NCBI RefSeq assembly: GCF_052425735.1
Contig: NC_135763.1
Span: 17,374,298 to 17,438,297 of the forward strand
DNA: 64,000 nucleotides
Origin: Oculina patagonica
Taxonomy: Eukaryota
Reading direction: 5' to 3'
The position numbers and the translations under genes are program-made. Below the pieces are notes generated by a model that had not been told where the DNA came from, did no database searches, and saw nothing but the letters and a program-made list of their open reading frames with translations. Every line of letters begins with the position of its first letter. The first letter of the stretch is position 1. Shown in pieces: positions 11,557-37,904 of the stretch.

Positions 11557-11939
11557 TTTAAATTCTCTATGTGTTTCAAGAACACAGTCTATAGAACACT
11601 TATTGTTACTATTCAGTGCTACGCACAAAAACTTGTCTTAGTTAAAACACAGAACTCAGTCAAATTTCATTCCAAAGCTACCATCCTGTTTTCTATATTT
11701 TTGACAGGCAACTGAAAAACATTACATATACAGCCCAGCTTCAAAACAAATGTCCTAGATGTCCACCTTCGCACTTGGCTGCTTTAGCCAATCATAACCC
11801 TGATATTGTGTTTTCGAATTCCCGCGACCTTTACTACAACAACCAGAAGTCTTTGCGCATTTACGGCATAATGCAAATGGGATGCACGTGGATATATATA
11901 TGGACCAGGTGACGCCACCAATGTCATCGAATTTCCAAG

Positions 11940-12180
11940 TGAAGCTTTATCAACAACAATTATTTTATTTTGACAAAAAAAAAAAAAAATATTTAAAAAA
12001 AAAAAAAAATTAAATTAATAAAAAAAAAAAAAAAATTTGGGGGGGGCCTTTTTTTAAAAAAACGGGGGGTCCCCCGGGGGGTCTCCCTCTTTTCCCACAA
12101 CTGTAAAAACATATTTTCCCCTCCCCGCACCGGGGGGTTTTTTTTTTTTTTTTTTTTTTTTTTTGTTTAACTTCACCTCC
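11940..12180. repeat. Homopolymer-dominated low-complexity block (A, T, G and C runs of 10-25). Similar blocks lie at 7320-7530, 11317-11332 and 9440-9460. This is probable sequencing or assembly noise, or degraded simple repeats.
   Basis: Read directly. Runs such as aaaaaaaaaaaaaatttggggggggcctttttttaaaaaaacggggggtcccccgggggg have no biological periodicity. Confidence 0.5.
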
Positions 12181-12474
12181 GCATACATGAGGTTTTTTAG
12201 TCCGCCATTACAGTTCGTTTCGTTCAAGAATTTCCGATGAGCTGAAACGTCGGTTTGAAATAGCGTCAAGGTTCCTCTACTCGTTATTATTTGTTCTGCA
12301 AGGATATCTGGCGTTAATTATGAAGAAAAAGGTAAGTTTGTCGCGGAATTTTTAGTTTTGCTTGTAAACATTCCTTCGTGTGGGCTCACATAAACATTGC
12401 AGCCGAGATTGCGCAGTACGGACTGGAATTCATTTTTAAGCCTGCTAGAAAATATTGCCATCTTCTTAACTTAC

Positions 12475-12673
12475 TGGTTTCGAGGTCTGACGTTGAAGTT
12501 TGAGTGGTAGACGTTTTGCTGTCGGAGCGAGCATTTTCTTGCAATGATGACACTTGTGGAACAGATTTGCAAGGGTCGTATTCTGTTCTACGACTGATAA
12601 TGCAAACAACCACGACAGAGCTAACCAAAACAGCTGTAAGCAACCGACGAGGTCTAGCTTTGCATCTTTTCAG
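12475..12673 (-). pseudogene. Sulfotransferase-like paralog B, signal-anchor exon. The ATG is out of frame because of a 1-nt shift relative to gene A.
   Basis: It aligns to 4427-4623. The ATG context aag atg caa agc tag leads into a stop. The hydrophobic frame has no ATG (the track's start is TTG). Confidence 0.5.
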
Positions 12674-12859
12674 CTGGAAATGAAAAAAAAAAACGATAAT
12701 TAAAAGCGGCCAGTTATCAAAGTCTCGAAAGTTTTGTCAGTATAATACTATAAAAACCGTTATTTAGCGGCGACCTTCATTAAGCGGCCACCATTCGACC
12801 GTGCCGATGAGGATTTATCTATTGTTTGTACCTCTATTAAGCGGCCACCAAGAATTTAA

Positions 12860-17260: not shown

Positions 17261-19204
17261 TGTGTACATTGTCTCTTGCCTTGCGAGCTTTATTTGCTGT
17301 TTGTAATTTCCTTACTTTTCTTAAGCCACGGGCGGGCAACCTCGTCCCTAGGCCTAATCCGTGCGTACGGGCGTACGTACGTACGTAGGCGACTCCCAAA
17401 ATTTCTCGGTTCGATATGATACCATTTGCCTGCCTATGGATGCTCCGCTCGCGCGCCTTCGGCGCGTGGGAGCTCCGCTATAATACAAACAGATGAAGAG
17501 GTTTAAAGCAACACAGATATAGCAAATGTATGCATGCCATTGAGCTGTTACACATTATACACAATACGTAGACATGTGCTTCTTCATTAAATTGAAGAAA
17601 CGAGAAATATTAGGAGGGTATTAAATTTCGCGAATTTTTTTTTCGCGCCGCTTTAAGTTCGAAATTAAAGCGGCGCGAAAATAAGTACCAATAAGGTAGC
17701 TCCTGGACAACAGGGTATCGAACATTCGACTAATACGCAATAAGCACTTTCTTTTTTGTGCAGTCCTGACCAACATACGTATCACATGTAGGTGAAATGT
17801 TAGTTTTAAAATGCCTTCTGAGCAGCGAAAAATGTCAATTGTTACACTAGCCCATCTTATTAACACTGTTGGGCGACAAGCATCTTAACGTCTATGCAAT
17901 TTAAGGTGCCAGTCAAACGAGCGGCTTTAATATAAATAAACTGAGACGTTTTCGTGTGAGAATCGAAGCGCCCAGTAAGCTAAGAGTTGGTTTATTTCCA
18001 ACCGTGAGTTTACTACGCGTGCAATAAACACTTCCGTTCACTGTTATTGCTTTCTGCTTCCGACGTAACGAATTCATTACAATAATTTCTTACACTGAGT
18101 TTGTCGCCAAAACTAAATTGAAATTTCCTGCAGGTTCACATTTCTGAACGAATTATGCATCAATTTTTAATGTTTCGATGCAACTGGATATTCTTAAATT
18201 AGTCAAAAGAAAGCGAAACTTAGTGTATTGTCCGTTACTGAAACCACTGATAATTATATTTATTCTTCTTCCCTTGTTTAATTTAAAAGATATTATTATC
18301 GTTATGCAAACAAACCTGGAAGTTTGCAACTTTAATTCAAAATAAAATAAACAAAATTAGTAATTGCTAAGCGTAATTCGGTAACTTTCCAAAACACAGA
18401 CCAATCTTCGCCCTTCCAAATTAAATGAATTAGGCTTTTGAAAAGTAGCCAAAACTAAACTTTAAACATGACATGTATATAACATAAAAATATTGCAAAG
18501 GCAATAAGCTTCTCTTTTCTTTGAAAAAAAATCGCAAAAGCGTTATCTCTTGCTAATAGCGAAAATTTTTTGACATCGAGAGCAAAATATAAGGACTTGT
18601 TTTACCGACTATCGGTTTATATTGAGTATTTATTTAAACCCACCAGGTGTTACACAGCCGAATCAATAGAGTGTAATTAACAATGTTTCACGCAAAAAAG
18701 CTCAATACAGCAAACGTGACAAGCTATTCGCTGATGCTGACTGGACCATAAATTATTTCGCCTTTAACGATCAGCAGCTGCAATTCGTTGTGCTTTAATC
18801 ACCCTGGGAGCTTTAGCAATCCGGATACGAAGGAATATTTAGTCATTTCACTGCCAGGTAAACGAGTGTTTTGTCAGGTAGAAACGTTCGGTCTACAACC
18901 CCAAACACAGCATTTGCGTTGGCAATTTGCTTTTAAGATAGCGATTGCAATTGTTGCCTCTAAAGCAAGTACTTGTTTACGAAACGACAAAGTCATTCTG
19001 AACACAGAGTTGTGGCATTTTCGAACTTTTGGCAAATGAAGAACTGAATTTTTGGTTTGTCTTCTTGAGGTGTGTTTTGCCAACGGAACATATAAACTTG
19101 GCAAAATGTTAATAAGGCCAACCCAAACCTTACCTTGTACAAATAGTGTTGTTACACTACTCATCTCTTTTATTAATGTAGCAGAAAACCGAGAGCTAGT
19201 CAAC

Positions 19205-19410
19205 ATGGCACAATATCTGCTGTTTTGGCTGTTGTTATCGTTATCTAGCGTGGATTCCAGCGTCGACACAAACTTCCACAGTTACGCATCGTGCACAAGC
19301 AATTGCCACTGTTCACGGAACGAAAAAGGAAAGGTTTTGGTGAAATGCAAGTTCGTCGGAGGAAATGAGACTGAAAAGGCGCTTCACCTACCGCCTGATG
19401 TGTACAGTTT
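19205..19410 (+). CDS. LGR-like GPCR, coding exon 1. It encodes a signal peptide (MAQYLLFWLLLSLSSVDSS) and a cysteine-rich LRR N-terminal cap (CTSNCHCS...KVLVKC) and ends at a phase-2 GTAAGT donor.
   Basis: The ATG at 19205 is followed by a hydrophobic signal-like peptide. The LRRNT cysteine pattern is present. A perfect donor tt|gtaagt sits at 19411. The frame continues into the downstream LRR exons. Confidence 0.7.
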
Positions 19411-20786
19411 GTAAGTACAGTAGAATTTATCGAACCCCTCGTTCCTTGATACTCAGGCCTTATTTCTCGATATCAATTTTCGTTTCCCTTGAATAGTACT
19501 TCTTTTTAATTTTACCCCCGAATTCTCGGGCTTTCCAATTTCTTGAAGCAATTTTCGTTTCTCCTGGTGGTTCGAGAAATCGTGATTCTACGGTAGATCT
19601 CAGTTATGCAATAAGTCAAAAGTATCATTAATACAATTTAGCAAAAACTGGGGCGTATACAGTAGTGGCTGTCTTCTTCTAGAGGATGCACAGTTTGGAA
19701 AAAGGGATTTTTCTTAAACGTTAGTTAGCACGCAAAAGCGCACAGCGATGCTCAATAGTAAGAGTACATTATATATGTATGGTTATGATGAACACCTGTG
19801 AAGGGGTATTATTTGATCGTGTGAACCGACCAGAATTTTGGAATTAGGCGATGCTTTAGAAGAGAACTGTATTGTCCTAAATGAACCATAACCGAAGAAT
19901 CATATAGCCAATGAAAGCCAATGGCAATTCAGGGCATAGCCGAGGAGTGATAACAAGGGAAAGTTTTAAGGCCAAGGACAAGTTTTTCCTTGTGAAAAGA
20001 CCAAAATCCTGCAATCCATCTAATCGATCGATCTAAAATTTCCACAAAAAACTGACGTGCTTTTTAACGGTTGGTGTGATATCTTAAGATTTTTACCGAC
20101 CTAATTATATGTAGATGTAGATGTAGAACAACAAAGGGAAAGAAACGATTGGCGAAGAAAGGTCCATAGGAGTTATTCCGAATTATATGATATTTATTGC
20201 ATGATTGCGACCGAGATACAAACAGGAAAAATGAGATAAAATTATATTTTGCGAGTATGCGATTAACTCTGTACCTTATGAAGCTAAAATTAGATGCATT
20301 AATGCTTGCCTTAGTGAAGCACCTTAGTAGCACCTCAGAAGATCGAGCAGCACAATAACAAGAAGAAAAAAAAAAGGACTGTGATACGATATCTTTAATG
20401 AAATAGTCTTAAAGAAAAACATATTTTTAAAAATGATCAAACTGACAGTTGGCTCTTTGTTTCTCGGGGAAATATGGAGATAACGTTAGAAATAATGTTA
20501 TGCTGTACCCGAACAAAGACTTCAGTACAACTACAAGTTTCCTTTTTAAATAATTTGATGGACACGATACAGTTTTTAAAAGACTACTTAGTTTGGCCTA
20601 AGACCGAAAAGCCCCAAAACAAGTTGTTCACCCTGAGCTTTTAATAATTTTACAGATTCTACACAGCCAAAACAAACAGTAACTTTTAATTTTGAAGACA
20701 CTCCACCTGCTGAACATGACACCCTACATGTATTTGTTTACTCGTACTAACTATCATGCTGCTTTCTGTTGTTATTATTTTGGCAG

Positions 20787-20858
20787 AGACTTATCCGATA
20801 ACAACTTGTCGCATGTTCCAACGTCCCTTGTCCATAAATATCGAAACATTACAAACTT
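20787..20858 (+). CDS. LGR-like GPCR exon 2, a 72-nt LRR exon (LDLSDNNLSHVPTSLVHKYRNITN).
   Basis: The acceptor is ttattattttggcag| and the donor is tt|gtaagt, both phase 2. The LxxLxLxxNxL consensus is present. Confidence 0.7.
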
Positions 20859-21177
20859 GTAAGTATAATAAAAACTACCATACGTTTTTTGACATTTTTT
20901 TTAAACTTGTAGTAATTTAAATTAGTTACTGATCCCTACGCATTTACACACTGGGCATTTAGTTTGATGTGAAAATAAGGCGAAAATAGTTTGAGGTTCA
21001 TCAAGAACATTTTCCCATAATGTGTTGTTAACTGCATGTCCATCGCTCTGGCACCATTTGGAAACAGAGTGTCAACCTAGAAAAGTCGTTCCTTTGTAAA
21101 ATTAAAGTTTTTAAGAGGAGATTTGTAGAAGAATCCGACAACGTTCGGTAATGCTATGAAAAATTGTTCGCTTATCC

Positions 21178-24100
21178 TTTGCATGAAGGTAGTCCTTATT
21201 AAAACTAAAAACGTTATGTTGTTTCTTTCTTCAAATATTTTTATTTTTCTGAGAAAAACGAAATTTTTTGATTTGACATCTAGACTCGTCTAGACTCGAT
21301 TGAGAGGGTACAAATTGGGTTGAAAATTGACCATTTTCAATCGATTCGTATGTCAAAACCATCACGCGCAGAAAAAAATAAATACAACCGGTCTATTGCA
21401 TAACTCTTCCTTGTCGAAATAAGCATAGTTTCAAGAGTTTTGGTTTAATCTAATTATTTTACGGTAAACAAAACCAGACTATTCTCACGCGAAATGAAAG
21501 TCGGTCGGTCAAAAGAATCGTCATTTTCACTATGTGCCTTATCTCAGAATTCCTTGAGATAAATATATTTCAACTGTAGAAGGATGATACTTTCAAAATA
21601 TTTAAAGTTTTGTCTGGGTAAATGATTAAGCACTTGTCAAAAAATTATTCAAAATCGTACAAAAACGACACAAAATCACGCAAGCTTTCGAATGCGTGAC
21701 CAAAAGTATTACCAACGTATTTGTTCTTTAAATCAATTTAGTCGCAACACTAGCAATACCAAGGCATAAATCATAATAAATATGTTCACCTTTGCTTGAT
21801 TATGATATCCTGTCCCATGCAATACGTTCTTTCCTGTCATTTCTTCAATGGCTTCCCGTTCAGTTCGCATGCCGCTTGTCGAATCCGTCTGCGACTGGTG
21901 AATTTGAAGCAACCACCGATACGAGTTTAACCAAATATGTATCGTCATGATTAACAAGCCCTTTTTGTGTTACTTGATTAAGCCATATTTCAGGTTATAG
22001 CCGGCAAAGCGTTTTCGATAAGCCACTTTGCAGTGCCTGTTGGCACCGTTATTATTCGAAGTGAAGTATAAATTTGCATACTTTCGAGACAAGCGTGACA
22101 GTTTTTTATACTTAGGGGGTGGGGTGAGGAAGGGTCTTAAATTTTTAGATGAATCAAATGTTTGAAAACGTTTGGGGATGAATTGTCACAAACTAATACC
22201 GTATTTTACATGGGGATGTAGAAGAATTTCACAACGTCAAACCTGAACCCACGGCAACAAGGATACCAGTTTTCTGCAATATGACATTTGATATTTCTCT
22301 TCCTACATCTCTATCTCCTTTAGAAGTCTTCCCTTTACTGTGATAAGCAATCTCGTGAGGAACTTTGCATGTACTGGAACTTTTTCGCCATCCAATTCCA
22401 AGCTCGGATCGATGAAAGGGACAGATAGTAAAAGCGCTAACATCCTGTTGCTTGTTAAAGATACCTGGTGTTAATGGCGAACAGGAACTTATTCTCCTTA
22501 GAGCATGCTCTAAGGACATGTAAGGAGAATAAGTTCCTGTTCGCCATTAACACCAGCAAAAGACCAGAGGGACTTATGATTTTCTATATCCTTGTTACAT
22601 GGGCAAAGGGACCTCGGTTATTAATTTACTTTTATCGCGTCGATCATGCGAGCAAGGACTGCCAACTATCGTTTTAAAAGAACAAGAAACTTCCATGAGA
22701 CACCAAGTGCAGCGAGAACATGTGGAGTTTCCAACAGTTCACCAGACAACTGAAGGGAAAAGCACTTTACGGGGACTGTGTTGTGCCGGTTGCTCCACAA
22801 ATGGTTCGTGAGAAAAAAGAAATCATTCAAACATCTATAATCGAGTTTAGTAAATTACATTAGTCTCGTCTCCTAAAAGTAAACAACGTGAATTCTCGCA
22901 CACACAAGTTGAGGTCAATTATTTTACTTTGTTGTTTTGGAGAATAATGAAGTACATAACTGAATTATATGGTTTTTATAGAAGGAGCAACCAGCAATTA
23001 GTAGATTATAGACTACCACCAAACCGGAAACGAGAAGCAAACGACTTTTAGAAAGTCTAACTTTAATAGATTACAACACTCTTTCCTGACAGCGGCTTTT
23101 TGTCAATACTTTTACGGTTTTTCTCTCTTTGATTTTGAGCGTAAGCAGAACTTATAAGTAAAGTAAATCACGTAGCAAATACGAGTTTGTGACAATTCAT
23201 CCCCAAACGTTTTCAAACCATTGCTTCATCTAAAAATTTAAGACCCTTCCTCACCCCACCCCCTAAGTATAAAAAACTGTCACGCTTGTCTCGAAAGTAT
23301 GCAAATTTATACTTCACTTCGAATAATAACGGTGCCAACAGGCACTGCAAAGTGGCTTATCGAAAACGCTTTGCCGGCTATAACCTGAAATATGGCTTAA
23401 TCAAGTAACACAAAAAGGGCTTGTTAATCATGACGATACATATTTGGTTAAACTCGTATCGGTGGTTGCTTCAAATTTACTAGTCGCAGACGGATTCGAC
23501 AAGCGGCATGCGAACTGAACGGGAAGCCATTGAAGAAATGACAGGAAAGAACGTATTGCATGGGACAGGATATCATAATCAAGCAAAGGTGAACATATTT
23601 ATTATGATTTATGCCTTGGTATTGCTAGTGTTGCGACTAAATTGATTTAAATAACAAATACGTTGGTAATACTTTTGGTCACGCATTCGAAAGCTTGCGT
23701 GATTTTGTGTCGTTTTTGTACGATTTTGAATAATTTTTTGACAAGTGCTTAATCATTTACCCAGACAAAACTTTAAATATTTTGAAAGTATCATCCTTCT
23801 ACAGTTGAAATATATTTATCTCAAGGAATTCTGAGATAAGGCACATAGTGAAAATGACGATTCTTTTGACCGACCGACTTTCATTTCGCGTGAGAATAGT
23901 CTGGTTTTGTTTACCGTAAAATAATTAGATTAAACCAAAACTCTTGAAACTATGCTTATTTCGACAAGGAAGAGTTATGCAATAGACCGGTTGTATTTAT
24001 TTTTTTCTGCGCGTGATGGTTTTGACATACGAATCGATTGAAAATGGTCAATTTTCAACCCAATTTGTACCCTCTCAATCGAGTCTAGACGAGTCTAGAT

Positions 24101-24200
24101 GTCAAATCAAAAAATTTCGTTTTTCTCAGAAAAATAAAAATATTTGAAGAAAGAAACAACATAACGTTTTTAGTTTTAATAAGGACTACCTTCATGCAGA
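21178..24200. repeat. Foldback structure. Inverted-repeat arms of about 1.05 kb (21178-22232 and 23162-24200, more than 95% identical) surround a central region of about 930 bp. It lies entirely within LGR intron 2.
   Basis: The arms are reverse complements along their whole length. This is seen directly, for example gcatgaaggtagtccttattaaaactaaaaacg paired with cgtttttagttttaataaggactaccttcatgc. Confidence 0.8.
22455..22555. repeat. Near-perfect palindrome of about 100 bp (tggtgttaatggcgaacaggaacttattctccttagagcatgctctaaggacatgtaaggagaataagttcctgttcgccattaacacca). It sits at the centre of the foldback.
   Basis: A self-complementary sequence with a stem of about 44 bp. Confidence 0.7.
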
Positions 24201-25639
24201 AGATGAGCGAAATCCCTGTATTTTAAGAATTGCCGCAAAAAAACAATTTTTGTTCGATTCTTCTACAAACTTGCTCTTAATTTAACCTGCAGTCCAATAT
24301 CGGGGCCAATTACCCTCGGCGCTCGTCTTAATGTTACGTTGTAGGAAACATATAACATGTTTTTTTCCTTTTAAACACAAGTCTGTCAGAAAGCAAAATT
24401 CGAGATAATAGCAGGACCTGGCAAGTCAATGAGTAGCGTCACTTTTTTTCAAGTAATTATTACTTCTGGCACACAGGGATATCTAAATTTATCAAAACCA
24501 CCGAAAACTTCGATATTCTCGAATATGATTGGTTTTCAACACTCCTAAGTTATTTAACATGAATAATTATTTACTGGCGCTGTAAACGAGACAGTGTTTT
24601 GCAAGAAGAAAAAAAACAATGTGAGAGATTCTCTTTCTAGTGCGTTTTGAAAGCAAACTACGCTGCTGTCGTCTTTTATTAACCAAAACAGTAAGCTTTT
24701 CGTTGTTATTTCCTTTCTCAATTTTTGCTGATTTTGTTACAATAATAATTTTACCAATTTAAATTGGTAGCATGACTTCATGTCGTCCAGTTCATTAAGG
24801 CCCCCGCAAACGAAGGAAAACTAATGCGGAAACGTTATTTCCAAAAAAGTATCCCAGGTTGCACCCACACACAACATTCGTTGCGAAAACAAAATTTGTT
24901 CGCGAGAAGCAAAATGTTTCCTCGTTGATATTTACATGTGGTACAGCAAATGTTTCCCCCATGGCGCCCAGCAATTAACTTCGTTTGTGGGTCCATCACA
25001 GACCGCGAGCTCGACTGAAATCAGTCCGATTACCGTACGGTAGTGAAAATTTAAACTTGTTCACAGCATTCATTTACTTTTTTGTCGTTGATTGGACTTT
25101 TTAATTGTGCAAATAATAATTGCATATCTGACGTTAGATAAATAGAAATTGAAAAAAAAAATAAAAAATGGAGAAACATGGAGAAAACTGGCATAGCGAA
25201 CAATTGATATAACTACTATAGCAAAAAATGTTTCAATCCTCAAGTTAAAGTTTTCACGCGTTGGTTGCCAGAAAAACCTACAATCGCGGCTTCACGCCGT
25301 GCCGCAATGACTTCGCTGCGTGAAATGAACCAAAGTGAACGATAAACAGATTTAAACATTGCTTTAAATGATTTTTAGAACTGTACACTAATATAATCCG
25401 TTATTATTCAGCTATCCGGCTTACTGGTACAACTGTTATCTTTCTCAGTGAAAAAAAAAAAAAATAAAAACCAAATAAAATGCCAGCTGCGAACGTCGAA
25501 ATTATTAATCAAGATAAAATTCACCTCCACTGCCAGGATTGACACATTTTTGCGATTCTGCTATATAATTACGTATGGCGTCTGTAGCAACGTTGGCTTC
25601 CAACAGCGAACCGAAAAATGTCCTATGCGGGTCCTCATG

Positions 25640-26583
25640 ACTAGCTATTCGCTGAAACTGACTGGACCATAAATCATTTTCGCCTTTAACGATCAGCAGC
25701 TGCAATTCGTCGTGCACTAAACACCCTGGGAGCTTTAGCAATTCGGATACGGAGGAATACTTAGTCATTTCACTGCCAGGTAAACGAGTGTTTTGTCAGG
25801 TAGAAACGTTCGGTCTTCAACCCCCAACACTGATTTCCGTTGGCAATTTGCTTTTTAGATAGCGATTGCAATTGTTGCCTCTAAAGCAGGTACTTGTTTT
25901 AGAAACGACACAGAAAAGTCATTTTGAACACCGAGTTGTGGCATTTTCTAACTTTTGGCAAATAATGAACTGAATTTTTGGTTTGTCTCCTTAACGTGTG
26001 TTTTGCCAAAAGAACTGAAAGATAAACTTGGCAAAATGTTAATAAAACCAACGCAAACCTTACGTTGTATAAATATTGTTGTTAACACTACTTATCTCTT
26101 TTATTAAAGGGACCGTGTCACGGATTTTAGACAAACTTAGGCATAGGAAATGACCACCAAATTCGTTTAAATATATAAAATAACATCTTAAAACAGTGAA
26201 GGAATATTTAAATCACACACCAAATGCAAAAGAAGGCACGGAGGCCAAAAGTGACGAAGATTGAAACAGATTGCGATATGGGTTTTTGAAAAGTGATCCG
26301 GCGGAACAGTTTTCAAAGTTAATCTTGTTTGCTTGTAACTTTAAATTACAACGCCGGGAAACATATTTGGTGCAGTGAAGCTATGATTTTGTCATTTAGA
26401 ATCATACAATTATTTTTTTGCAAACATTTAGTTTCATAGCGGGTGTATTTAATAACATAAAATTAACTTAGCCGTGACACAGTCCCTTTAATGTAACAGA
26501 AAACCGAGAACTAGTCAACATGGCACAATATCTGCTGTTTTGGCTGTTGTTATCGTTATCTAGCGTGGATTCCAGCGTCGACA
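25640..26583 (+). pseudogene. Partial duplicate of the LGR 5' flank plus the start of exon 1 (equivalent to 18725-19273, about 90% identical). It is interrupted by a 380-bp MITE and diverges right after ...SSVDT. It is a pseudo first exon inside intron 2.
   Basis: Alignable directly. The motif atggcacaatatctgctgttttggctgttgttatcgttatctagcgtggattccagcgtcgacaca is present at both 19205 and 26520. Confidence 0.7.
26108..26487. mobile_element. TTAA-flanked MITE (about 380 bp, TIR AGGGACCGTGTCACGG...CCGTGACACAGTCCCT) inserted into the duplicated LGR 5' copy. The empty site is visible in the original (ttattaa|tgta at about 19165).
   Basis: TSD TTAA at 26104-07 and 26488-91. The original locus has a single TTAA. 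Confidence 0.7.
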
Positions 26584-27021
26584 CACAAAATTCACAATTT
26601 TTCCAAAATGCCAGAAAATAAATAAAAATGTGCTTTAAATCCGTGAAAATAATTCCATTTAAGTTGATTTTTATTAACAGAGACACGCAAAATTACAAAT
26701 TTGGGAAAACATGCCTGTCAAAATGCCGTTGCCATGGTGATGTCAAGTTCCTGACACATCATCCAACCCTACCAAATTGTTGCCAGATAAATTTGAGGAA
26801 AACTCAGAAAGTTTGGCAGCGTTTGGTTAAATCTTAAAAAGTTATAAAAGTTCAAAGTCAACGCAGGCCTCAAAAGCCCCACCCCCCCGGTCTGAATAGG
26901 GTTAAATGTTATAAATATAGTCACGAACGGAAACAAATTCTTCAATTTCTGTCATCCCAGTTATCGTTGCTACTATTAAGAAAGAATTTTGTTTTTCATG
27001 TATTTTTCTTTTTTCTACCAG

Positions 27022-27096
27022 AATTTTGGATGGAAATGAATTACACAATCTGACATCCGAAGGACTGTTGGCTGATTTATCCTTCCTACAATATCT
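27022..27096 (+). CDS. LGR-like GPCR exon 3, a 75-nt LRR exon (LILDGNELHNLTSEGLLADLSFLQY).
   Basis: The acceptor is ttttttctaccag| and the donor is ct|gtaagt, both phase 2. An LRR motif is present. Confidence 0.7.
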
Positions 27097-27420
27097 GTAA
27101 GTGTTTAGATTGCAATAATTGTGTATAATGTTGCCACCTCTCTACGTCTCTTTTTTAAAGTACATCTCGCGCTTTGCAAAACACATAATTGTTGGAAAAT
27201 TGACAAAAACCTTCATCTTTGAGACTGTTCATGCACACTTTAAAGTTTGCTTCGAAAAGCAGTGAGAATATAAAATGCTCAATAAACGCAATGATGTGTC
27301 ATTCAGATTGCCCGTGCTCAGAAATTCCACCCAGCTATCCACTTAAAAAGATTTCGGGAAAGATAAAAAAGATGGACACATATAGGTGAACTTCATACTC
27401 AAGATAAATTTTACTATTAA

Positions 27421-29451
27421 AGTGCCTATGAAGTAAAAAACTTTTTTGCTTTTTTTGGTAGCTTATTATTGTACTTTCCGAAAAGCTAAAAAAAGAATAA
27501 TGTCAAAAGAGAGAAATCGGACTTTTTGCCGTCTAAAGTGCCCTCGGTAAGACAAAACAGTGGGTCCGGAGACTGGACACGATGGCCGAAGACGTAGTTA
27601 GTGGTTCCACGGATCAGTTTACACTTAATTTTATTGATACACAGTGAAGTTCACTACTTCAGCGAGATTGTTACTGCTTTTCGTTGATAAATCGAAATCT
27701 TGTCCGAAAAGAACGATATGTTGCCATCTCGGACTTGGCTGAGTGAGTTTCTAGCAGAAAAGAACGAAACGATCGTACACTAAATGGACTGAAGTAGTTA
27801 GTTGGACCTGTCCAACCGCCGCAAGCCGAATAAGCGCTCTTTCACACAAGCGCTGGTTGACGAGGATGATCGAATTTGGCAAAGCAGATAAAGAGAAATT
27901 CTATAAAAAATGAATAACTAGAATTTTATTTTTCCAAAAGCACATACATCGACGGGCTTTGATTTTGTGACTGGTTTCGCAGTGTCGCAATGGGCTTCGG
28001 AATTGACACGAGCGCTGCTTGCCGCGCCGGGGTTGCTTGCTTGTCGAATGTGTAAATTCAGGTTACGGTACGCCTATCCCGGTGGTTATTCGGTATTATA
28101 TCACGATTTAGTGATTTTAATACAAGTAGCGATCAGTTGCTCGCTTTCATTTTGATTGTGTTCTTGTGTGGGAAAGTACAGTGGACTGACATATTTCTCC
28201 GAAGCATGAGAGTGACATAATTAAACTTGACAACACGGCAAGATAACACTTCTTCAAACTCAAGGTTAGCACTTTTTGACTTGATCGAAACCAAAAATTT
28301 CCTCTTCAAGAATAAACAGAACTGCAGTTGTTGCTCTTTATGGTTCGTTAGCTCTACGGTATATTTTCAACCGTCTTTATTTGGATACGATAAATCCTGA
28401 TTACAGTGCGTGTTTATCGGCAAATATAAATTCCGGTGAAGGCAGCCGTAAAATTTGTCCTAGATTTTGCAAGATCTCAGTGTATTGTTTAAAAGTTCAT
28501 TCGCCATAGAATACCGGAAATGCAGACGTGAATGACAAAATTCGAAGCGCGCTACTTGAAAACAAACAAGCATTTCTAACTCACTCAAGTCGAATTTTAT
28601 ACATTCCATACTTTTGCTTCTTTCACAGATGCATTCGTTTGCGTCTGGCGATCGATCGTTTCAAGTGTTTGGGAAAGGAAACGACTGCTACCTTATGAAT
28701 GATAAAACGATCTACTAACCATACAAATTACATTTTGAGGAACGAAGTCTCATAATAAAAGAATAACACGTATACTGTACCCAGCTGTGTAACATATAGA
28801 CTTTCAATAAAGTCCTTCGTCTTGTTTATTATGGCGCGCCGGGAAACTCCGGGCGCGACTGCTAAATCTTTCTTTCGGCTAGTCAGGGCAGAATGAGAAA
28901 GAGACCGCCATATCCTTTACAGAGGTAACTCTTTTAATAAATTTCCTCCTCGCTTCATGACTTGATCGTTTCATTTGTGGCAAGGAAGAGCTTGTGCTGA
29001 GAACATCGATCCTTGAACTGCCGACGGAACAGAATTCGTTTCTTCTTGCGTTTTCATCAGAAGTGAACGAATAGCTTTACGATACACATGGAAATCTGCT
29101 TCCATTTACTCTGCTAAGCTTCACCAAAGGAAATAAGTGTATTTGTTGCAGTTTCGTTTGCGCAATTGCCTTAGTTTGACTCAAAAGCCGAAATATAGCT
29201 TTCGCCAGCCCTCTTTGCTCTCTTTACGCCATAATCCTGGTGTCTTTAGAACCACTAAGTACGTCATTTCCGGTGAAACCGGAGCGTTTGGCCGCGCGCG
29301 AGAAGGACCCACTTCAAATTGCGAAATCCAAACTTCGAGGCTAAAAAAATACTAGAAAAAAGCGCTTTTGATCTCTTAAACACGCATATTCGTGCTAACT
29401 AAGACATAAACAAGCAAATTGAGCAAAATTATTTTTTACTTCATAGGCACT
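27421..29451. mobile_element. Non-autonomous DNA transposon of about 2 kb (TIR AGTGCCTATGAAGTAAAAAA) flanked by TTAA. It occupies most of LGR intron 3.
   Basis: The inverted termini are at 27421-27445 and 29427-29451, with TTAA on both sides. Only short ORFs lie inside. Confidence 0.5.
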
Positions 29452-29551
29452 TTAAGGTTATGTATTTGAATCAAATTACAAAATATCAAGCATTCATTTC
29501 AAATTACGTAATTTTGACCGCTATTAACATCACGGTTGCCTTACTTTTTAG

Positions 29552-29623
29552 TTCTGTACAAAGAAACTCCATCAGAGATGTGGACAGCAAATTCTTTGGA
29601 GGACTTTATCGGCTAAAATACTT
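29552..29623 (+). CDS. LGR-like GPCR exon 4, a 72-nt LRR exon (LSVQRNSIRDVDSKFFGGLYRLKY).
   Basis: The acceptor is ccttactttttag| and the donor is tt|gtaagt, both phase 2. An LRR motif is present. Confidence 0.7.
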
Positions 29624-30206
29624 GTAAGTATCAGGAAAACGTTTAAAAATTGTAGAAAAAGACATAACAATTGTAACGACAGATGAAAGATAATTTTAAC
29701 TTTTAAACGGAACACGAAATACAAACTGTCATTCTGTTCTGTACAAATTTCGACTTTCGTTTGTCATGTCGTCATCTTATTACTATTCAGCACCTGCAGT
29801 CACTCTACTGCTACCCAGACCACCTTTCGGTCTTGACGCGTGCACTTTTGTGCTTTTTCCGACAACCTTTCTCGAATTAGCTATAGCTGTATACGGGAGA
29901 GGCTCCTGACTGTCTTCTGGGCCCTTTGCCTTAATACAGCGCTTTCCGATGGCTCTCAACGCAGCGAGTTGTTGTTTACTGAGTTTGTTTGTTTGCCGAG
30001 TTACAAAACTGCATGGCCAGACGTCTCGTCCAACATTCTGCACCAGAACAAAGATGTTTTCGTTTTAGTGCTTTATTTATTAGTGCTTAAAAAAATTGCA
30101 AGAGCCTTCCATTGTTTACTCGTTTTTTGTTGGAGCTGTTTTGTTAAACATTTTTAGATGAAACAAATGCAATCCCTCATGAGTATTGTTATTCTTTCCT
30201 CCACAG

Positions 30207-31728
30207 AAATCTTAGCCTCAACAATGTTAAGGCATGGACTGGGAACCAGTCACAAAGTACCGAACGTCTTGAATACTTGGACATCACTGGAACAATCGAC
30301 TGGGTCCCGGATGAAAACATCCTTGTCCTTCCAAACCTCAAAGAACTCAGGGGGGTCACTTGGTGTAAATTTTGTCCCAACTGTACAGTGATCAACCCAC
30401 GAAATATTGTCAATGAGTCACAGAGAAAACAGAAGGCAGAGGAATGCCTTCGAGAGTTTAATGACATGAAGTTTCTGGAATTTGGGAAGGAGGATCCCAA
30501 AAGATTTATAAGACACCGATACTTGCCCGAATGCATGTGCGTAAAGCAATCGGAATGTGAGTTCCGCCATGTCGTGATGCCATACTTTATAAAGCATACC
30601 TCATTGCCACAGACGTTGTTTTACTTAGAGTATGCTCTAAGTCCTTTTACTATCCTTCTAAACATTGTCGTAATTGTAACAATTCTGACATCTCGCTCTT
30701 TGCGCAAGGTACCTTCATTTATCCTAATAGGTCACACGGGACTTACCGACCTCCTGACCGGTATTTACGCAATATGGGTGGCCCATGTTAACATCTCTAA
30801 CATTGATAGTGTTTTAGAAGAGGTTATGTGGGCAGGGAAAGAGCTGCAACCCTCAACTGGTCCAATCTTCATCTCTGGCCAACTGATCTCGGTTTCAATT
30901 TCATTGCTTCTTACACTTGAAAGATATCTTGCTGTTGTTTACTGTGTGAAGCCGTCCAAACGCATGACAGCGAAAAGTGCTCAAATCTCTTTGCTTTTTG
31001 CTTGGGCCATGGCTATCGCTTTTGCTGTCATGCCCGTATTTGGTGTCGGCGGTCTACATTACAACATCAAACGAGCTTGCGCTCCTTTGAGTTACGATGA
31101 GCAGTTCAAGTCAGGGTCCTCGCTGATTCTTCTGTTCTCTCTTGTTTTCATTGTGTTGCTGTATCTTGTAAATCTTCCTTTGTACTTCCAGCTTTTTAGG
31201 TTTGTTAAAAGAAGCAGTAACCAGGCTGGTGTCAAGCGAGAGATGTCTCTTGCCAGAAAAATCGCTTTTTTGGTTCTCACTAATTTCATTTTCTTTGCTA
31301 TACCCATAATCCTCATTCTTGTGTTCTCCATCTTTGCCAATCTTGACAGCAACCCGTTTGACTTTGAAGGCGATGCTTTCAAAAGCACCGTTTTCAAGAT
31401 TTCTATTGGCCAATGGCTCCCAGTCACGTGTCTGAATATCAACTCCCTATTGGACCCGTTTCTTTACGCGTTTAAACACACGCACTTTAGGCGGGAAATC
31501 AGGTGCAGATTCCATCGTCTTTCTAGAAAGGTCTTTCCATCTTTGGTTCCTTCATTGATGTTTAATTCCGTTGATGATTTTTCAGCGTCCAGTGCCCCAC
31601 GAACAAGAAAAATGTCAAGAATCGACGAGCAGTCGACCGGAAGTAAAGCCAAAAATAAAATTGTTCCTGTTGCCAACGAAGAATTGGAATTCCAAGAAAC
31701 ACATAAACAAGTCTCTAAATCAATGTAA
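30207..31728 (+). CDS. LGR-like GPCR terminal exon. It encodes 2 LRRs, an LRRCT (CKFCPNC), a cysteine-rich hinge, the 7TM rhodopsin-class domain (ERY at the TM3 end, DPFLY = NPxxY in TM7) and a C-tail of about 80 aa. The stop TAA is at 31726.
   Basis: The acceptor is ttattctttcctccacag|. A 483-aa ORF (30277-31728) runs in the same frame. Seven hydrophobic helices are visible, and E/DRY and NPxxY-type motifs are present. Confidence 0.8.
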
Positions 31729-31789
31729 GAGGACAACCTGCGACTCTGTTGAAAATCGTTGTTGGAGCTCGAGGTAAAATAATGCCAAC

Positions 31790-31866
31790 AAACCCTCCCA
31801 AATAATCCCCCCTCCCCCCCACAAAAAAAAGGACCCCCCCCCCAAAAAAACAACAACAACAACAAC

Positions 31867-31900
<34 letters not shown>

Positions 31901-31910
31901 AGAGCGCTTC
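31790..31910. repeat. Compound low-complexity microsatellite (poly-C/poly-A, then (CAA)7 and (CA)15) just downstream of the LGR stop codon.
   Basis: Read directly. Confidence 0.8.
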
Positions 31911-34039
31911 AGGTTTTTCCACTTTTCTTCTTTCACTAAAAGCGTATTTGGGACTTTCCACTATACACTAAAGACGGCACTTCTTGATTGCCTAAAACTT
32001 CAGAGAAGTAAAATAAGAGTGAAGATGTAGTGAAAAAAGTGCTAGAATGTGTAAACTGAAAATATAGCCTTAACTATAATCTCCACTACATGTAAATGAT
32101 TAAGTACAAACATAAAGTTGTAAATACATGTATTTGCAAATACTCGAAGGGGGCGTTTTGGCGTTTTAATACCTCTGAGACCACTTTACGTGTGGTCACC
32201 ACATTTCAGGAAAAGTTGACATTCTAGTAATAAAATTACTTATGAATCTAAGAATTTTTGAAGTCTGCGACTGCGGCATAATTTAAAGTGACTTGCTACT
32301 AATTAGTTTTGACACTATAAAAATCCTTAGCAATGTACTTTCAGATGTAAATGACGACAATTAAATTAAGTGCATTACAGTGCTTTTATCTGTATCATGT
32401 ACATGTGCGGCATCAGTTGTAAATAGCTGAGTAATGGCAATGAGTTTGAAAGTATTATTTGTGGTATCTTGGTTCGTTTTCACATGAAACGAGTATGGTG
32501 GTCCATTGTATGTAAAATTGTACATAAAAATATATAATCCCACAATTATAACTGATTAAAACTTAAAGAACCTCGTGTTTGTTGAGCTAACCAGTTTCAA
32601 TTAAAACTATTATGTTAATTATAGCTAGTCAAACGCCCACAAACTTTAAAAAATGTTATTTCTGACGATTGAGTGACTTTGATGAATTAATGAGACAGAA
32701 ATTAGTGTTCTGACGGCACAATTGAGAGGCTGGCGGGTTGTCATGGGATGCTAGATCAAGATGACTGACTGACTGACTAGTAGAATGACTGACTGACACA
32801 TCCTGAATATAAACACTTCACATTGAATGTCTTGTGTAGGTGTAGTTAGAATCTTTCACGGGCCAAGCTATCTCTCTTAACCTTAACGTAAGGGACCATG
32901 AGAAAAAAAATGAATCACTAGAAGATCGCGAGTTATTTAGCAAATAATGCATCGAGGAAGTGTAAACCAGTAAGGGCTGATTCGCACTAGCGGACAAGTT
33001 TGTAATGTCCTGACATTTGTGACCAAAAAAATTGTCGCGACAAGTTGTCAGAGACATCTTGAAGAAAAAAAAGGTGGAATTATTAGTACAATAGCTTCTA
33101 GTATCCTTGTATATTTCTCAGTGCGGCCGTCTTGAGCAAACATCAAATATGAAGGACCACGTGGTAAAAAATTCCAAATACAATTCGCATTTAAAGTGCG
33201 CGTGTTCTCATGCAGTGGAAAAATGAGTCGCATCAAGAAAACGTTTCCTTTTCCCACCCTTACGTTGGGAGAAACACTTCATTTAAAAACATGCTTTGCC
33301 TATCACGAAAATATTTCACGGCTGTAATATGATAGTAACATCACGGTGCATACTGCCGTGCTGGATTCACAATGCGAATTTAGAAGCCTTTATATTACCG
33401 CGCTGGCACGAGATCAATAGGGGTGGTACATTTAAGAAAAATACTACAAGAAATAAAGATTTTTTTGACAATTCAGCTTCCCTTGATGAAAAATTACCGA
33501 GATTGGCTTAGCCTTTCTCTAACGTAAACAGAAGATTAGATTTAGCTGTTATGTCAATCACTTTACTTCTTTCTATCTTGTTCTCAGTTGCGAAGCAAAG
33601 CTAAGGTTGTAGCTTTCGTTGTACTTTGATGAACAGGTTAACTTTGCTGTAACCTTGGTTCACTGCAAAAACTTCTCGCATAAATTGTAATAAGAACAAC
33701 TGGCTCGAAGATCAGTGAACGAGTAGTGATCAAGAGATATCCCCGAATAACATTTTATACACAATATATATTTATTAACTCTTTGTTAATAAAAAAATAA
33801 ATAGTTTATTAAATAGACATAATGACATTGCAAAATATTCACGTAATGCATAGAAAAAGTGTCCTAGAGAGCACTTAATTATTTACGATTACGACATTTT
33901 TGAAAGTGGTTTCAATTTTCTTGGAGTAGTGTCTGGTAAGTTACTGTGGGCTTTCGCCTCGTTTTCCGGTGGTGTTTTGGCGCTGTTAATTACAATGTAC
34001 AGCTGTGGGCAACACTCCAGGAACGAAGGAATAGTGCAA

Positions 34040-34156
34040 TTAACACCAAGTAAGGTTCTGATTGGTCCGGAAGCTTGGTTGGTCACATGGCCTGAGTAGT
34101 GATTCATTCTCTGCTGAGCCTGGACTGTCATTTTCTGGTTCATCAGTGGCTTGAAC
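34040..34156 (-). CDS. SLC35F6-like copy 1, terminal exon (VQATDEPENDSPGSAENESLLRPCDQPSFRTNQNLTWC*).
   Basis: The acceptor is tttgtgtacag|. The copy 2 equivalent (53427-53531) is conserved in this frame only (VQATDEPENDSPGSGESEPLLRG...). It has an acidic, Ser-rich tail like the human SLC35F6 C-terminus. Confidence 0.5.
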   Translation of the reverse strand, partial: VQATDEPENDSPGSAENESLLRPCDQPSFRTNQNLTWC

Positions 34157-34218
34157 CTGTACACAAATCACAAAATTTCATGCTGTACATGTATTTTCGT
34201 TATTCGCTGCTAATTTTA

Positions 34219-34609
34219 AGGGAACTGTGTTACGGATTGAAGCCAAATTTAGGCATGGGAAACGGCCATCAAATTCGGTGAATATAAACAAATAATTGCT
34301 TAAAACGGTGATAGAACGTTTCTATAACACAGAAAATACAAAAGAAGGTACGGATGGCCAAAAGTGAGGAAGATTGAAACGGATTGCGATGTGAAATGAA
34401 ATACTGTTGGGCTGAACAGTTTTCAAAGTTAATCTCGTTTGCTTGTAACTTTAAAATATAACGCCTGGGAGACGCATTTGGTTGTAATGAAGCTATGGTT
34501 TTGTTTTTTAGATCCACAGAAGTAATTTCTTTGCAAACTTTAAGTATCATAGCGAGTATTTGGCAAAACTTAATACAATAAACTTAACTCAGCCTTGACA
34601 CAGTCCCTT
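34219..34609. mobile_element. Member of the TTAA-MITE family (AAGGGAACTGTGTTACGG...CCTTGACACAGTCCCTT). It lies between SLC35F6-like copy 1 exons.
   Basis: It shares the termini and the internal sequence (about 80%) with 26108-26487. Confidence 0.5.
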
Positions 34610-34838
34610 CAAGTAACCGATCGAAATTAACAAAATCTAACCCCTGGTTACTTAAAACTGTGTAAGAGGAGGCACTGATCTTGGATTAGTTTTCTCCAGT
34701 ATTCCTATCAAAGTCAATTTAAGTAAAGTAACTAAAAACTTTTTTTTTCGTGTCTATGTATTTAGCCCTTGTGGGCTAATTGGGGACACCAATTAAAATT
34801 CCTAAAACTGTTAATACTTAGCCTAAAATTTATGTTAC

Positions 34839-34933
34839 CTGCTGTGGTGGTTCAGGCTTGGGCATCAATGGCGGAATTATTAAAAGTTCATTATAAAGAG
34901 CGTTGCCAAGCAGTAGGAAAAGGAATCCATCGA
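34839..34933 (-). CDS. SLC35F6-like copy 1 exon (DGFLFLLLGNALYNELLIIPPLMPKPEPPQQ). The donor is cag|gtaaca.
   Basis: It matches human SLC35F6 ...GFLILLIGTALYNGLHRPLLG. The acceptor is ttttttttccacag| (phase 1). Confidence 0.6.
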
Positions 34934-36111
34934 CTGTGGAAAAAAAAGTTGATTCAGGAAATGCAATTTCCACGCATAATATTAATTGAAAGTAAGAAAA
35001 GAAATGTTGGAGGTACAGCAGTAAAATGTTATAATTTAAAAATATGTACACAATTGAGAGAAAAATCAAAACGAATTGTCGAGTCCCAACTCACCATACA
35101 TATTCCGTTCTTCAAGAACCACTCCTCAAAAAAGAGTCATAAAATGACTATGCTGCAACTTTCAGTTGAACCAGTTTTGAATTGCCCGTCTCCTTGCCTT
35201 AATAGTTTTTCAGTTGCTCGTGGAAATTCACAGTATGTAAAAAACCACAGAGGATTGAAGACAACTTCTTACCTTGAAATATGCCATATTTACTGTCCCA
35301 AGCTTCACCAAAACCCTAACAACACAGACACAAGTGAACTACAACGTTAAGACAAAACAAATACACCATTGGAATAAAGTTATGACAAATTTCGGGCAAA
35401 AAACCCTTTACTCTTCACTGTATGTATCGTACATTAACGGTTTGACTGAGATTAAGGGGATTGACCAATAAAAGCGTCACTGGGGAAGTCAAAACGTTGC
35501 GTGGCTGAAAGACTAATAATTTTGCCGATTCATTTTGGCATCATGCCTCCAAAAAATAACACGGTAACTTCATATTCTATTTTTGCTTACGAAATTTTCC
35601 ATCTAAAACCTTTAGTGTGTTCGTTTAAAGTGAAAGGAACAGAAATTATGACTCCAATCTTAAGGATCAGAAAGCATCTGCACAAAATGATTTTTTGTGG
35701 GGTAGCAGTAGCTGTTATTGCAGTTTTCAGCAGTTTGATACACAAAGGGTCATTCTGTTAACCCTTTCGTCTCGTTCGCATACCTTCTTAACAAAAGAAT
35801 ATATTATTGCAGGCTCAACTGAATAACAGCCATTTGTTATGTGTATGTATTGCAGAGACCATTGACTCGCGGACAGGAGGCACTAACAAAGAGAACTCAA
35901 CTTAAAATTGAATGGAAACTATCAACATGGTGATATCGTTTGAATGCGAATGCAATTAACATTTAGGATATGTTTTGCAGTTTGATTTTATTACCGAACG
36001 ATTTGCATGCTTTGAAATCTTTGCTTCACGGGTCGTGAATCAATTCGTACAGAGACGACCACAATTATTAATTTCTTGAAGTGCCATAGTGTTAAATGGA
36101 AATACATGTAC

Positions 36112-36194
36112 CTCATGAAAGACGTAGTGCACAAAAAGGTCGACAACCCAAACAACAATGGTCCTGAGAGCATCTATTAATGTTGTGTGGACAG
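36112..36194 (-). CDS. SLC35F6-like copy 1 exon (VHTTLIDALRTIVVWVVDLFVHYVFHE).
   Basis: It matches human MVLDSLRTVVIWALSLALGWEAFH. The acceptor is ttttcag| and the donor is gag|gtacat. Confidence 0.65.
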
Positions 36195-36401
36195 CTGAAA
36201 AGGAGAGTGGTCATGATTTAATAATACAACAAACAAACAAACAAACAAACAAACAACCACACAAAAAACCAAGAAAAAAAAACAAGCAAACAGACTTGTA
36301 ACTTGTAAACCAATAGTACAAAGCACAGAATAGAACAATATAAAACTAAGAATTTTAATTTGCCTACTAAATGATTCATCAGATGCCACAACCATTCTTA
36401 C

Positions 36402-36467
36402 CCGTTAGAGACTTTGTGACTGAGAGGCCAAAGAAACTGTAAAACGAAACAGAACAGATATACAAAA
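36402..36467 (-). CDS. SLC35F6-like copy 1 exon (VLYICSVSFYSFFGLSVTKSLT).
   Basis: It matches human ISSIAFFNFAGISVTKELSA. The acceptor is tgttttgcag| (phase 1) and the donor is acg g|gtaaga. Confidence 0.6.
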
Positions 36468-36906
36468 CTGCAAAACAAGAGGTTAAAACAATAAACCAGT
36501 TGAATACATTAAAAGCACAAAAAAGAAAAAAGAGAGAATACTTAAAAAATATAAATCTTTTTTACACAGTCAAACCCATTAGGACGTAAGGATGATTAAC
36601 GAAGTTGGAAATGGATTAAAGAGTTAAAGAGTAGAAACAGAGGATTAAAGAGTGCCTACAATACCTACAATTAACTGTGTAAGCTAAATACCACGTCACT
36701 TAATAAATAAAGGTATTCATTTCAATATTACATGTAAAAATGTGGGGCTTGTGTTTTTTATGTTTTGTGTCGATTCCGTTAAAATGCTTGAAAAGCTTGT
36801 TCTACAAAATTACACTTTGAGCTTGTTCCATGGCTAAACGGCCTAAACAAATTTCTGCCAAGATGACATAAATACAAGCACACATACAAGTACTTTTTAA
36901 ACACAC

Positions 36907-37021
36907 CTGACATTCCTAACAGTTGCGAATTATTTTTGATCATCAATATTGCATCAAGACTGTTCTCGTAGCTGTGGTGGTTCTGGTCTCCTGGAATGTA
37001 GTACAGCACAGGAAGGACTAA
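36907..37021 (-). CDS. SLC35F6-like copy 1 exon (LVLPVLYYIPGDQNHHSYENSLDAILMIKNNSQLLGMS).
   Basis: It matches human LLVPMYYIPAG...LEDALDAF. The acceptor is ttatgttacag| and the donor is tca g|gtgtgt. Confidence 0.65.
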
Positions 37022-37154
37022 CTGTAACATAAAGATACAGAGATGAAAATGAACTTTTTCATGAAGAGTTAGCCAAGCCTTATGCTTCATTACATGTTGA
37101 TACAGGTATCAAGCTGTAAGCAAAAAGCTAGTTTTTGTTGTTGTTTTTATTATT

Positions 37155-37541
37155 AAAGGACTATGTCACGGCGATTTGGTAGATTTTTGGTCTAAACTGT
37201 TTTGAAATTAGTGGTAGGCAACTTAACTCATGAAAATCATTATCTTTGAACATCTAAAAGAAGATATAACCATAACTTGCAGATAGAAATCAAGCCATGG
37301 CTTTAAATATCGATATTTTGAAGACGCGCGGAAAGAACGTGAAAAGTTAAAGCCTTAATTTTTCAAATTGCAATCCATTTCCATCCAAGCCATTAGCAGC
37401 CAAAGACGCTTGTTAACAGTTTCAGTGCTCTAATATAGCAATTTTTGATAAAATTGGACCATTATTTTAAGGTTTCCTACAAAACAAATAAAAATAGGGG
37501 CTGTTTAAGAATCTGTTACAATTCGTGACAAAGCCCCTTTA
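37155..37541. mobile_element. Member of the TTAA-MITE family (AGGACTATGTCACGG...CGTGACAAAGCCCCT) with TTAA on both sides.
   Basis: TTAA at 37151-54 and 37542-45. It shares the internal block taaaattggaccattatt with 60650. Confidence 0.5.
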
Positions 37542-37731
37542 ATACGGACATAATTAAATAAGAGAAAGGAGAAAGGAAGATAACGATTAATTGCAGGGAT
37601 TTTTTTTTTAAAGTGAGACATTCAACTTTTCCAACATGCGAGACTCTTAAACATTATGACATGCCATGATAGATTCGTTACACTATAAAAAGCACCAAAA
37701 TGATCTATCCAAAGGTAAACGAAATACTTAC

Positions 37732-37776
37732 AAAACTCATGAAAATGATTCCAAAGAAACCTTCCACTCCAACAAC
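37732..37776 (-). CDS. SLC35F6-like copy 1 exon of 45 nt (VVGVEGFFGIIFMSF).
   Basis: It matches human AVGTEGLFGFVILSL. The acceptor is gtcataatag| and the donor is ttt|gtaagt. Confidence 0.6.
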
Positions 37777-37904
37777 CTATTATGACAAAAGAAGTCATCA
37801 AATCTACATGTAGGAATATAAATGACTGCATTTAGACTAGGACTTATAATAAAAGTAATGAGAGCAGCATAGTAACCTCCAGCAAGATTATAATGTCTAA
37901 CTTG

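Follow-up and report, generated by a model that had tools for sequence, protein, structure and literature searches.

The window, i.e., the whole 64-kb stretch of Oculina patagonica DNA that was analysed, harbors on its plus strand a five-exon gene for an LGR-type receptor of 648 amino acids with LRR and 7TM. The gene model is based on a tblastn of Montipora and Acropora proteins onto the window, from which the splice sites were read, and a subsequent colinear alignment. All introns have the form GTAAGT...AG and are in phase 2. The gene is composed of the following elements:

19205..19410, plus strand: exon 1, with the ATG, a hydrophobic leader, a Cys-rich N-cap and a GTAAGT donor; phase 2 (tblastn, model)
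20787..20858, plus strand: exon 2, one LRR, 72 bp; phase 2 (tblastn, model)
20859..27021, plus strand: intron 2, 6163 bp, in which the fragment described below and an inverted-repeat structure of 3 kb are located (locus comparison)
27022..27096, plus strand: exon 3, LRR, 75 bp; phase 2 (tblastn, model)
29552..29623, plus strand: exon 4, LRR, 72 bp; phase 2 (tblastn, model)
30207..31728, plus strand: exon 5, with the last LRRs, hinge, 7TM, tail and stop codon (protein search, Pfam, model)

The open frame at 30148-31725 (526 codons) matches rhodopsin-family receptors in a protein search, and its best named matches are "follicle-stimulating hormone receptor-like" proteins of Montipora capricornis (70%) and Acropora muricata (64%); no transcript-derived protein of O. 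patagonica was found among the matches to the last-exon protein. Pfam reports 7tm_1 for residues 152-420 of the last exon (E = 2e-23) and LRR_8 at a score that exceeds the curated cut-off (E = 6e-14), and exons 2 to 4 contribute one LRR of 24-25 amino acids each. The receptor is colinear with the Montipora "FSH receptor-like" protein P0016 (65% identity over 578 aa, one gap). The two Pfam domains and this colinearity support the label "LGR gene", which the initial annotation of the locus had used, and the LRR ectodomain, the rhodopsin-type 7TM and the colinearity with the family identify the predicted host protein as an LGR-type GPCR.

A block of 554 bp from the beginning of this gene, comprising 488 bp of 5' flank and the first 66 nt of the coding sequence (CDS; 22 codons), recurs on the same strand with an offset of 6921 bp. 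The copy at 25638-26585 is recovered by BLASTN in two regions:

18717..19270, plus strand: original segment (BLASTN and alignment)
25638..26107, plus strand: copy part A, matching original 18717-19176 (BLASTN and alignment)
26488..26585, plus strand: copy part B, matching original 19173-19270 (BLASTN and alignment)

Part A is 89.6% identical to the original over 471 columns with 37 mismatches and six gap openings (BLASTN, E = 3e-171), which corresponds to 91.9% of the ungapped columns, and part B is 98% identical with two mismatches in 98 nt (BLASTN, E = 1e-45). The 66 nt of CDS are the same in copy and original. The edges of the similarity at about 18717/25638 and at 19270/26585 are abrupt, with unrelated sequence outside, as documented by a global alignment from which the insert had been removed, and a self-comparison of the whole window revealed no third copy of the block. 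The duplicate is located in sense orientation within intron 2 of the receptor gene, and its end lies 436 bp upstream of exon 3. A partial duplication at 25640-26583 within this intron, with roughly 90% identity, had been proposed previously; our coordinates agree within 2 bp, and both the location and the identity are supported by the alignments. It had also been stated correctly that 5' flank and CDS start were copied together, but the coding part comprises 66 nt and not the first 70. The ATG (26520 in the copy, 19205 in the original) and the N-terminal hydrophobic leader (MAQYLLFWLLLSLSS) are retained as described, with all 22 codons of the copied stretch (MAQYLLFWLLLSLSSVDSSVDT) unchanged.

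The coding capacity of the copy is limited to a short reading frame:

26520..26621, plus strand: truncated ORF of the copy (ORF reading)

It encodes the 22 N-terminal amino acids of the receptor followed by 11 unrelated ones and ends with a stop codon at 26619-26621. The remaining 140 nt of exon 1, i.e., two thirds of it, are missing from the copy together with the GTAAGT donor. In-frame joining to exon 3 would require a phase-2 donor; the open part of the copy contains no in-frame consensus donor, and its phase-2 GT sites agree with the consensus in at most three of eight positions. Methionine is absent from exons 3 and 4. Because the donor was not copied, the GT sites are poor and exons 3 and 4 lack Met, the copy is predicted to be incapable of encoding an in-frame alternative N-terminus.

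The two parts of the copy are separated by a miniature inverted-repeat transposable element (MITE), two further representatives of which are present in the window:

26104..26107: left TTAA target-site duplication (flank reading)
26108..26487: MITE, 380 bp, 35% GC, longest ORF 42 aa (terminal inverted repeats, ORF, folding and flank checks)
26488..26491: right TTAA target-site duplication (flank reading)
19173..19176: single, empty TTAA in the original, paralogous to the insertion site, in the context tcttttaTTAAtgtagcag (alignment)
34220..34608: second, older copy of the MITE family, 78% identity, with degenerate inverted repeats and TTAA / TCAA flanks (self-comparison)
37157..37538: related MITE with similar inverted repeats (AGGACTATGTCACGG ... 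CGTGACAAAGCCCCT) and TTAA on both sides (flank reading)

The element inserted at a TTAA 29 bp upstream of the copied ATG. Its 16-bp terminal inverted repeats (AGGGACCGTGTCACGG / CCGTGACACAGTCCCT) are complementary in 15 of 16 positions, and the folding of its single strand beats that of all 100 shuffled sequences (z = -2.97). Since the TTAA site in the original is empty, the duplication happened first and the MITE inserted later; the empty paralogous site thus documents past mobility of the element. The TTAA-flanked MITE in the copy and the empty TTAA in the original, both of which the initial annotation had noticed, are thereby confirmed. The element exhibits every property of a MITE, namely, a size under the usual limit of about 500-600 bp, lack of coding capacity, terminal inverted repeats, a target-site duplication with an empty site, and dispersed copies of homogeneous size; the window contains no autonomous partner with matching inverted repeats and a piggyBac (DDE_Tnp_1_7) transposase.

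A scan of metagenome contigs for the pattern of TTAA plus MITE inverted repeat retrieved the inverted repeat in 33 contigs, from which seven copies of 359-404 bp were extracted. One of them is 5'-truncated and two pairs share their flanks; these pairs (L018/L024 and L027/L029) represent alleles or diverged duplicates. Many contigs stop inside the element, as expected of a high-copy repeat. Within the set L006-L038, which mostly originates from metagenome Ga0126336, the stop is frequently located about 115 bp inside the MITE, and these breaks indicate a high-copy family that disrupts short-read assemblies of coral host DNA in metagenomes.

At element ends that were not fixed by the search pattern, TTAA was found in L018/L024 and in L035. 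It is present at both ends of the window copies at 26108 and 37157, and also of L012, although the pattern had fixed both ends of the latter, and older copies carry degenerate versions of the target site (CTAA, TTGA, TCAA). Because the pattern-free ends show TTAA or a one-base variant, the target appears to be TTAA and not TA or TWA. The latter two, typical of Tc1/mariner and PIF/Harbinger, respectively, were considered since the element ends with A...T, but they are opposed by the flanks of independent copies and would require a coincidental T/A everywhere. The hallmark of piggyBac elements, which has also been quoted for the CMITEs of corals, is TTAA-CC[C/T]T...A[G/A]GG-TTAA (PMC2872659). 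The TTAA target-site duplication of our element conforms to this structure, but its termini read TTAA-AGGG...CCCT-TTAA, i.e., each end begins inward with AGGG and not with CCYT. Because the terminal hallmark is absent, the element is best regarded as a TTAA-specific MITE without a firm assignment to piggyBac.

Four contigs that encode close relatives of the receptor served as comparison loci:

L001: protein 89%; covers window 19733-32750 (intron 1 to past the stop codon); intron 2 of ~2.3 kb
L004: protein 76%; exon 1 included; intron 2 of ~1.6 kb
L003: protein 75%; exon 1 included; intron 2 of ~0.6 kb
L005: protein 82%; 1276 bp upstream of exon 3; intron 2 partial

L003 and L004 possess a single exon 1, and the sequences of L001 and L005 stop short of it. 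A BLAST search with word size 7 detected no match to the duplicated block in intron 2 of any of the four loci (partial intron in L005). The identity between the introns of the window and L001 is 78-79% (ungapped columns), compared to 92-93% between the paralogous blocks (ungapped columns). Because the paralogues are more similar to each other than the introns are, the duplication is younger than the split from L001, which fits its absence from this locus, and with all four loci lacking the copy it is lineage-specific. In a sensitive BLAST, the alignment of intron 2 with its L001 equivalent is confined to the initial 190 bp and to some patches that reach as far as position 24921; no alignment with L001 exists across 24922-27006, so that the pre-insertion target, and with it a junction microhomology, is not recoverable.

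The considerable length of intron 2 (6.2 kb versus 2.3 kb in L001) is paralleled by intron 3 (27097-29551), which spans 2455 bp in the window and 344 bp in L001 (3447-3790). In the lineage of the window, a general expansion of the introns of the receptor gene has thus taken place. A further structure in intron 2, located at 21167-24211, is an inverted repeat with two 1028-bp arms, 21167-22194 and 23184-24211, which share 99% identity and enclose a spacer of 989 bp. It shows no clear target-site duplication, no Pfam match of its ORFs and no counterpart in L001, and it may be a young element of the foldback type or an inverted duplication. A short dispersed repeat is located between the copy and exon 3 (26697-26907); it is found again at 11238-11345 of the window (85%) as well as in metagenome contig L038 and intron 2 of L004 (70-72%).

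Duplications and repeats also occur in other parts of the window. Ten colinear patches of 80-160 bp with 80-95% identity, about 19.4 kb apart, connect the regions 34076-42937 and 53451-62948, which points to an old tandem segmental duplication. Within this pair the MITE at 34.2 kb and a 2-kb satellite are restricted to the first copy; the satellite (37859-39929) consists of about 26 copies of a 78-bp unit with 72% matches and higher-order periods of 201 and 396 bp. An ORF of 194 aa at 34766-35347 has no Pfam match. Microsatellites and other repeats at 41952-42090, 60899-61492 and 31800-31900 include about 35 units of (GTCA) and a 252-bp tandem repeat with 2.3 copies (95%), and CA- and CAG-rich microsatellites directly follow the stop codon of the receptor gene. 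The minus strand carries tandem paralogues at 2023-4652 and 8984-12736 with a weak Sulfotransfer_3 signal (E = 4e-4, under the Pfam cut-off); they are 85.5% identical between 3749-4145 and 8998-9395, and the exons for their hydrophobic N-termini (4388-4595; 12436-12643) share 77%. The ORF at 47750-48013 on the plus strand encodes a dimerisation domain of the type found at the C-terminus of hAT-family proteins (Pfam E = 5e-15), and it is the remnant of a hAT transposase or a domesticated gene.

The differences between copy and original are unevenly distributed, with two in the 98 nt after the MITE and 37 in the 459 nt before it (Fisher p = 0.03). The alignment contains perfect runs of 74 and 56 nt (simulation p = 0.035; jointly 0.003), and the overall divergence of the copy from the original is about 7-10%. 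This pattern could result from constraint on both copies or from gene conversion, and chance together with constraint on just the original would also account for it. According to an estimate from the observed rate, constraint on the original only would halve the divergence in functional blocks and yield a probability of about 0.07 for zero changes in 66 nt. The conserved stretches may therefore be read as a weak signal and not as evidence of a functional copy.

We conclude that the copy is probably the inert relic of a gene fragment, which originated from a lineage-specific partial duplication at the DNA level and was later hit by a MITE. In this scenario, intron 2 received a 554-bp piece, in unchanged orientation, from a source 6.9 kb upstream, and we infer that local double-strand-break repair or template switching is the likely mechanism. 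A TTAA-targeting, non-autonomous DNA transposon would then have inserted upstream of the copied ATG, followed by neutral decay of the copy. The duplicate is most likely transcribed only within the intron and removed by splicing, while the functional gene would remain the five-exon unit that starts at 19205. A search of the surroundings of the copy for the marks of a transposon, such as terminal inverted repeats or target-site duplications, yielded only short repeats at chance level. Since the block is bordered by no transposon termini, target-site duplication or poly(A), it is unlikely to have been captured by a mobile element or retroposed. A retro copy is moreover opposed by the presence of 488 bp 5' of the ATG, the truncated 3' end and the lack of flanking direct repeats.

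Three other origins of the duplicate have to be weighed against a partial duplication at the DNA level. One of them would see in the copy what is left of a tandem duplicate of the whole gene: after deletions, exons 1-2 would stem from the upstream paralogue and exons 3-5 from the downstream one, of which the promoter and the start of exon 1 would also persist as the copy. This origin is quite improbable. Tandem paralogues and segmental duplications are common in the window, as exemplified by the sulfotransferase-like pair (3749-4145 / 8998-9395) and by the regions at 34-43 kb and 53-63 kb, and a similar origin has been proposed for PEP1 (PMC3527215). However, this explanation requires a large duplication and at least two precise deletions, there is no trace of the remaining exon 1, intron 1 or exon 2 in 26586-27021, the nearest relative L001 is a simple single gene, and the start of intron 2 is still orthologous to its equivalent in L001. 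The notion that the shared 554 bp are a dispersed repeat, i.e., a transposon fragment present at both sites, is hardly credible. The region is repeat-rich and the fragment at 26697-26907 recurs elsewhere, but only two copies of the duplicated core exist in the window and about 170 kb of other coral DNA, and a 30-mer from its most conserved block had no match in the metagenome contigs compared to 33 for the MITE inverted repeat. The block furthermore lacks terminal inverted repeats and a target-site duplication and includes the start codon and 22 codons, which in the original run without interruption into the rest of an exon 1 that aligns to orthologues. The earlier claim that the similarity concerns the gene-specific 5' region and is not limited to a generic repeat has thus withstood scrutiny. 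A protein-database search with three concatenated long ORFs of the core (18788-19414, both strands) returned nothing at E <= 0.01, which is a weak search as the species' own ORFs are absent from the database, and an Rfam scan of 18000-27500 detected no family. Errors of assembly, for instance through a chimeric read or the mis-joining of an alternative haplotype, are just as implausible an explanation as a dispersed repeat. Coral assemblies are prone to false duplications, and exact look-ups of exon 1 (69 aa) and two junction-spanning ORFs retrieved no independent contig across the junctions. A divergence of about 7-10% with six indels, a private MITE and unrelated flanks is nevertheless unlike a haplotig duplication; the gene model on either side of the copy is free of irregularities and shows colinearity with the relatives, and the last exon nearby is matched at 99.8% by an independent Logan contig from O. 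patagonica.

The remaining question is whether the copy acts as a promoter. This label was an assumption already for the original flank, which is itself only a putative promoter. A pyrimidine tract followed by tag/cag directly upstream of the original ATG (ctcatctcttttattaatgtag/cag) resembles a 3' splice site, and part of the 5' flank could thus be a 5'-UTR intron. The 150 bp upstream of the ATG are too divergent from L003 and L004 for a reading of promoter conservation. A TATA-like motif is present in the original at 19138-19145 (TACAAATA), 60 nt before the ATG, and the copy contains a better one at 26068-26075 (TATAAATA). A working internal promoter or alternative first exon that drives a second transcript, be it an RNA that is non-coding or bears uORFs, a receptor with a truncated N-terminus that starts at a downstream Met, or one that interferes with the host gene, is an improbable explanation of the copy, albeit the least improbable of its alternatives. 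It would accord with the sense orientation at a distance of 436 bp to exon 3, the retention of 488 bp of 5' flank including the better TATA-like motif, the intact context of the ATG, and the 98% identity of the 3' 98 bp with long perfect blocks. Precedents are PEP1 of Arabis alpina (PMC3527215) and, as cited there, pea lip1/COP1. However, in contrast to PEP1, neither the exon-1 donor nor 140 nt of exon 1 are part of the copy; it offers no in-frame consensus donor and runs into a stop after 33 codons, and the downstream exons 3 and 4 are devoid of Met. Insertion of the MITE has moved the copied ATG 380 bp further away from its flank and placed five ATGs (26150, 26224, 26278, 26383 and 26491) in between, and the copy is absent from the four related taxa. 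The suggestion of an alternative promoter, a decoy or a short transcript therefore finds no support in the sequence, and we infer a lack of promoter activity. It is very unlikely that the intronic copy still serves as an internal promoter, with transcripts beginning some 0.5-1 kb before exon 3 and the MITE tuning its activity. If it did, a receptor without ectodomain could be produced from the first Met of the last exon and could signal without ligand, or the full-length gene could be dampened via transcriptional interference or a uORF-laden RNA; either way, a hormone-receptor-like gene of a coral would have gained a regulatory innovation that is young and species-specific.

The interpretation of the copy as an inert gene-fragment relic is mainly of value for annotation: the copied ATG and leader may be mistaken for the start of a gene or for an alternative first exon of this receptor gene, and assemblies can break at members of the MITE family. 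Thanks to the empty site, which is preserved, the locus allows the ordering of events, first the duplication and then the MITE insertion, and it documents recent small-scale duplication and DNA-transposon activity in a coral lineage. It also defines a family of ~380-bp TTAA-targeting MITEs without the canonical terminal motif of piggyBac. If transcription did start from the copy, the locus would exemplify how a promoter can be born through intragenic duplication, but the sequence currently favours no such activity.

The components of the locus can be compared with known systems. LGR or glycoprotein-hormone-receptor-like GPCRs have been documented in cnidarians (PMC4079206), with which the receptor shares an LRR ectodomain encoded by short phase-2 exons and the combination of hinge and 7TM in one large exon; it differs in its short ectodomain of about 5-6 LRRs. 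The MITE resembles the CMITEs of Acropora (PMC2872659), which are likewise small, non-coding and intronic, possess terminal inverted repeats and a TTAA target-site duplication, and occur in many copies in coral DNA. The latter are about 100 bp long compared to ~380 bp here, and the resemblance is one of structure. In PEP1 of Arabis alpina the promoter and exon 1 have been duplicated, which results in two overlapping transcripts (PMC3527215), and a similar precedent is the internal promoter of pea lip1/COP1 as cited in that study. The shared characteristic is the duplication of the proximal 5' flank and the gene start in tandem orientation, within the same locus and upstream of shared exons. 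In PEP1, however, the whole exon 1 was duplicated with its donor and both copies splice to exon 2 (PMC3527215), whereas the copy in O. patagonica is not a complete first exon with a usable donor: it comprises only 66 nt of CDS, lacks a donor, terminates its ORF, and is located two introns into the gene. With truncated, unprocessed gene-fragment pseudogenes that arise by local duplication at the DNA level, the copy shares its shortness, the presence of putatively non-transcribed flank, the lack of poly(A) and of intron loss, a near-neutral divergence and the restriction to one lineage. The fragment is peculiar in its position inside its own parent gene in sense orientation, but otherwise nothing essential distinguishes it from typical gene-fragment pseudogenes, and the case is of an ordinary, well-documented kind, namely, a gene-fragment duplicate within its parent gene that subsequently received a MITE.
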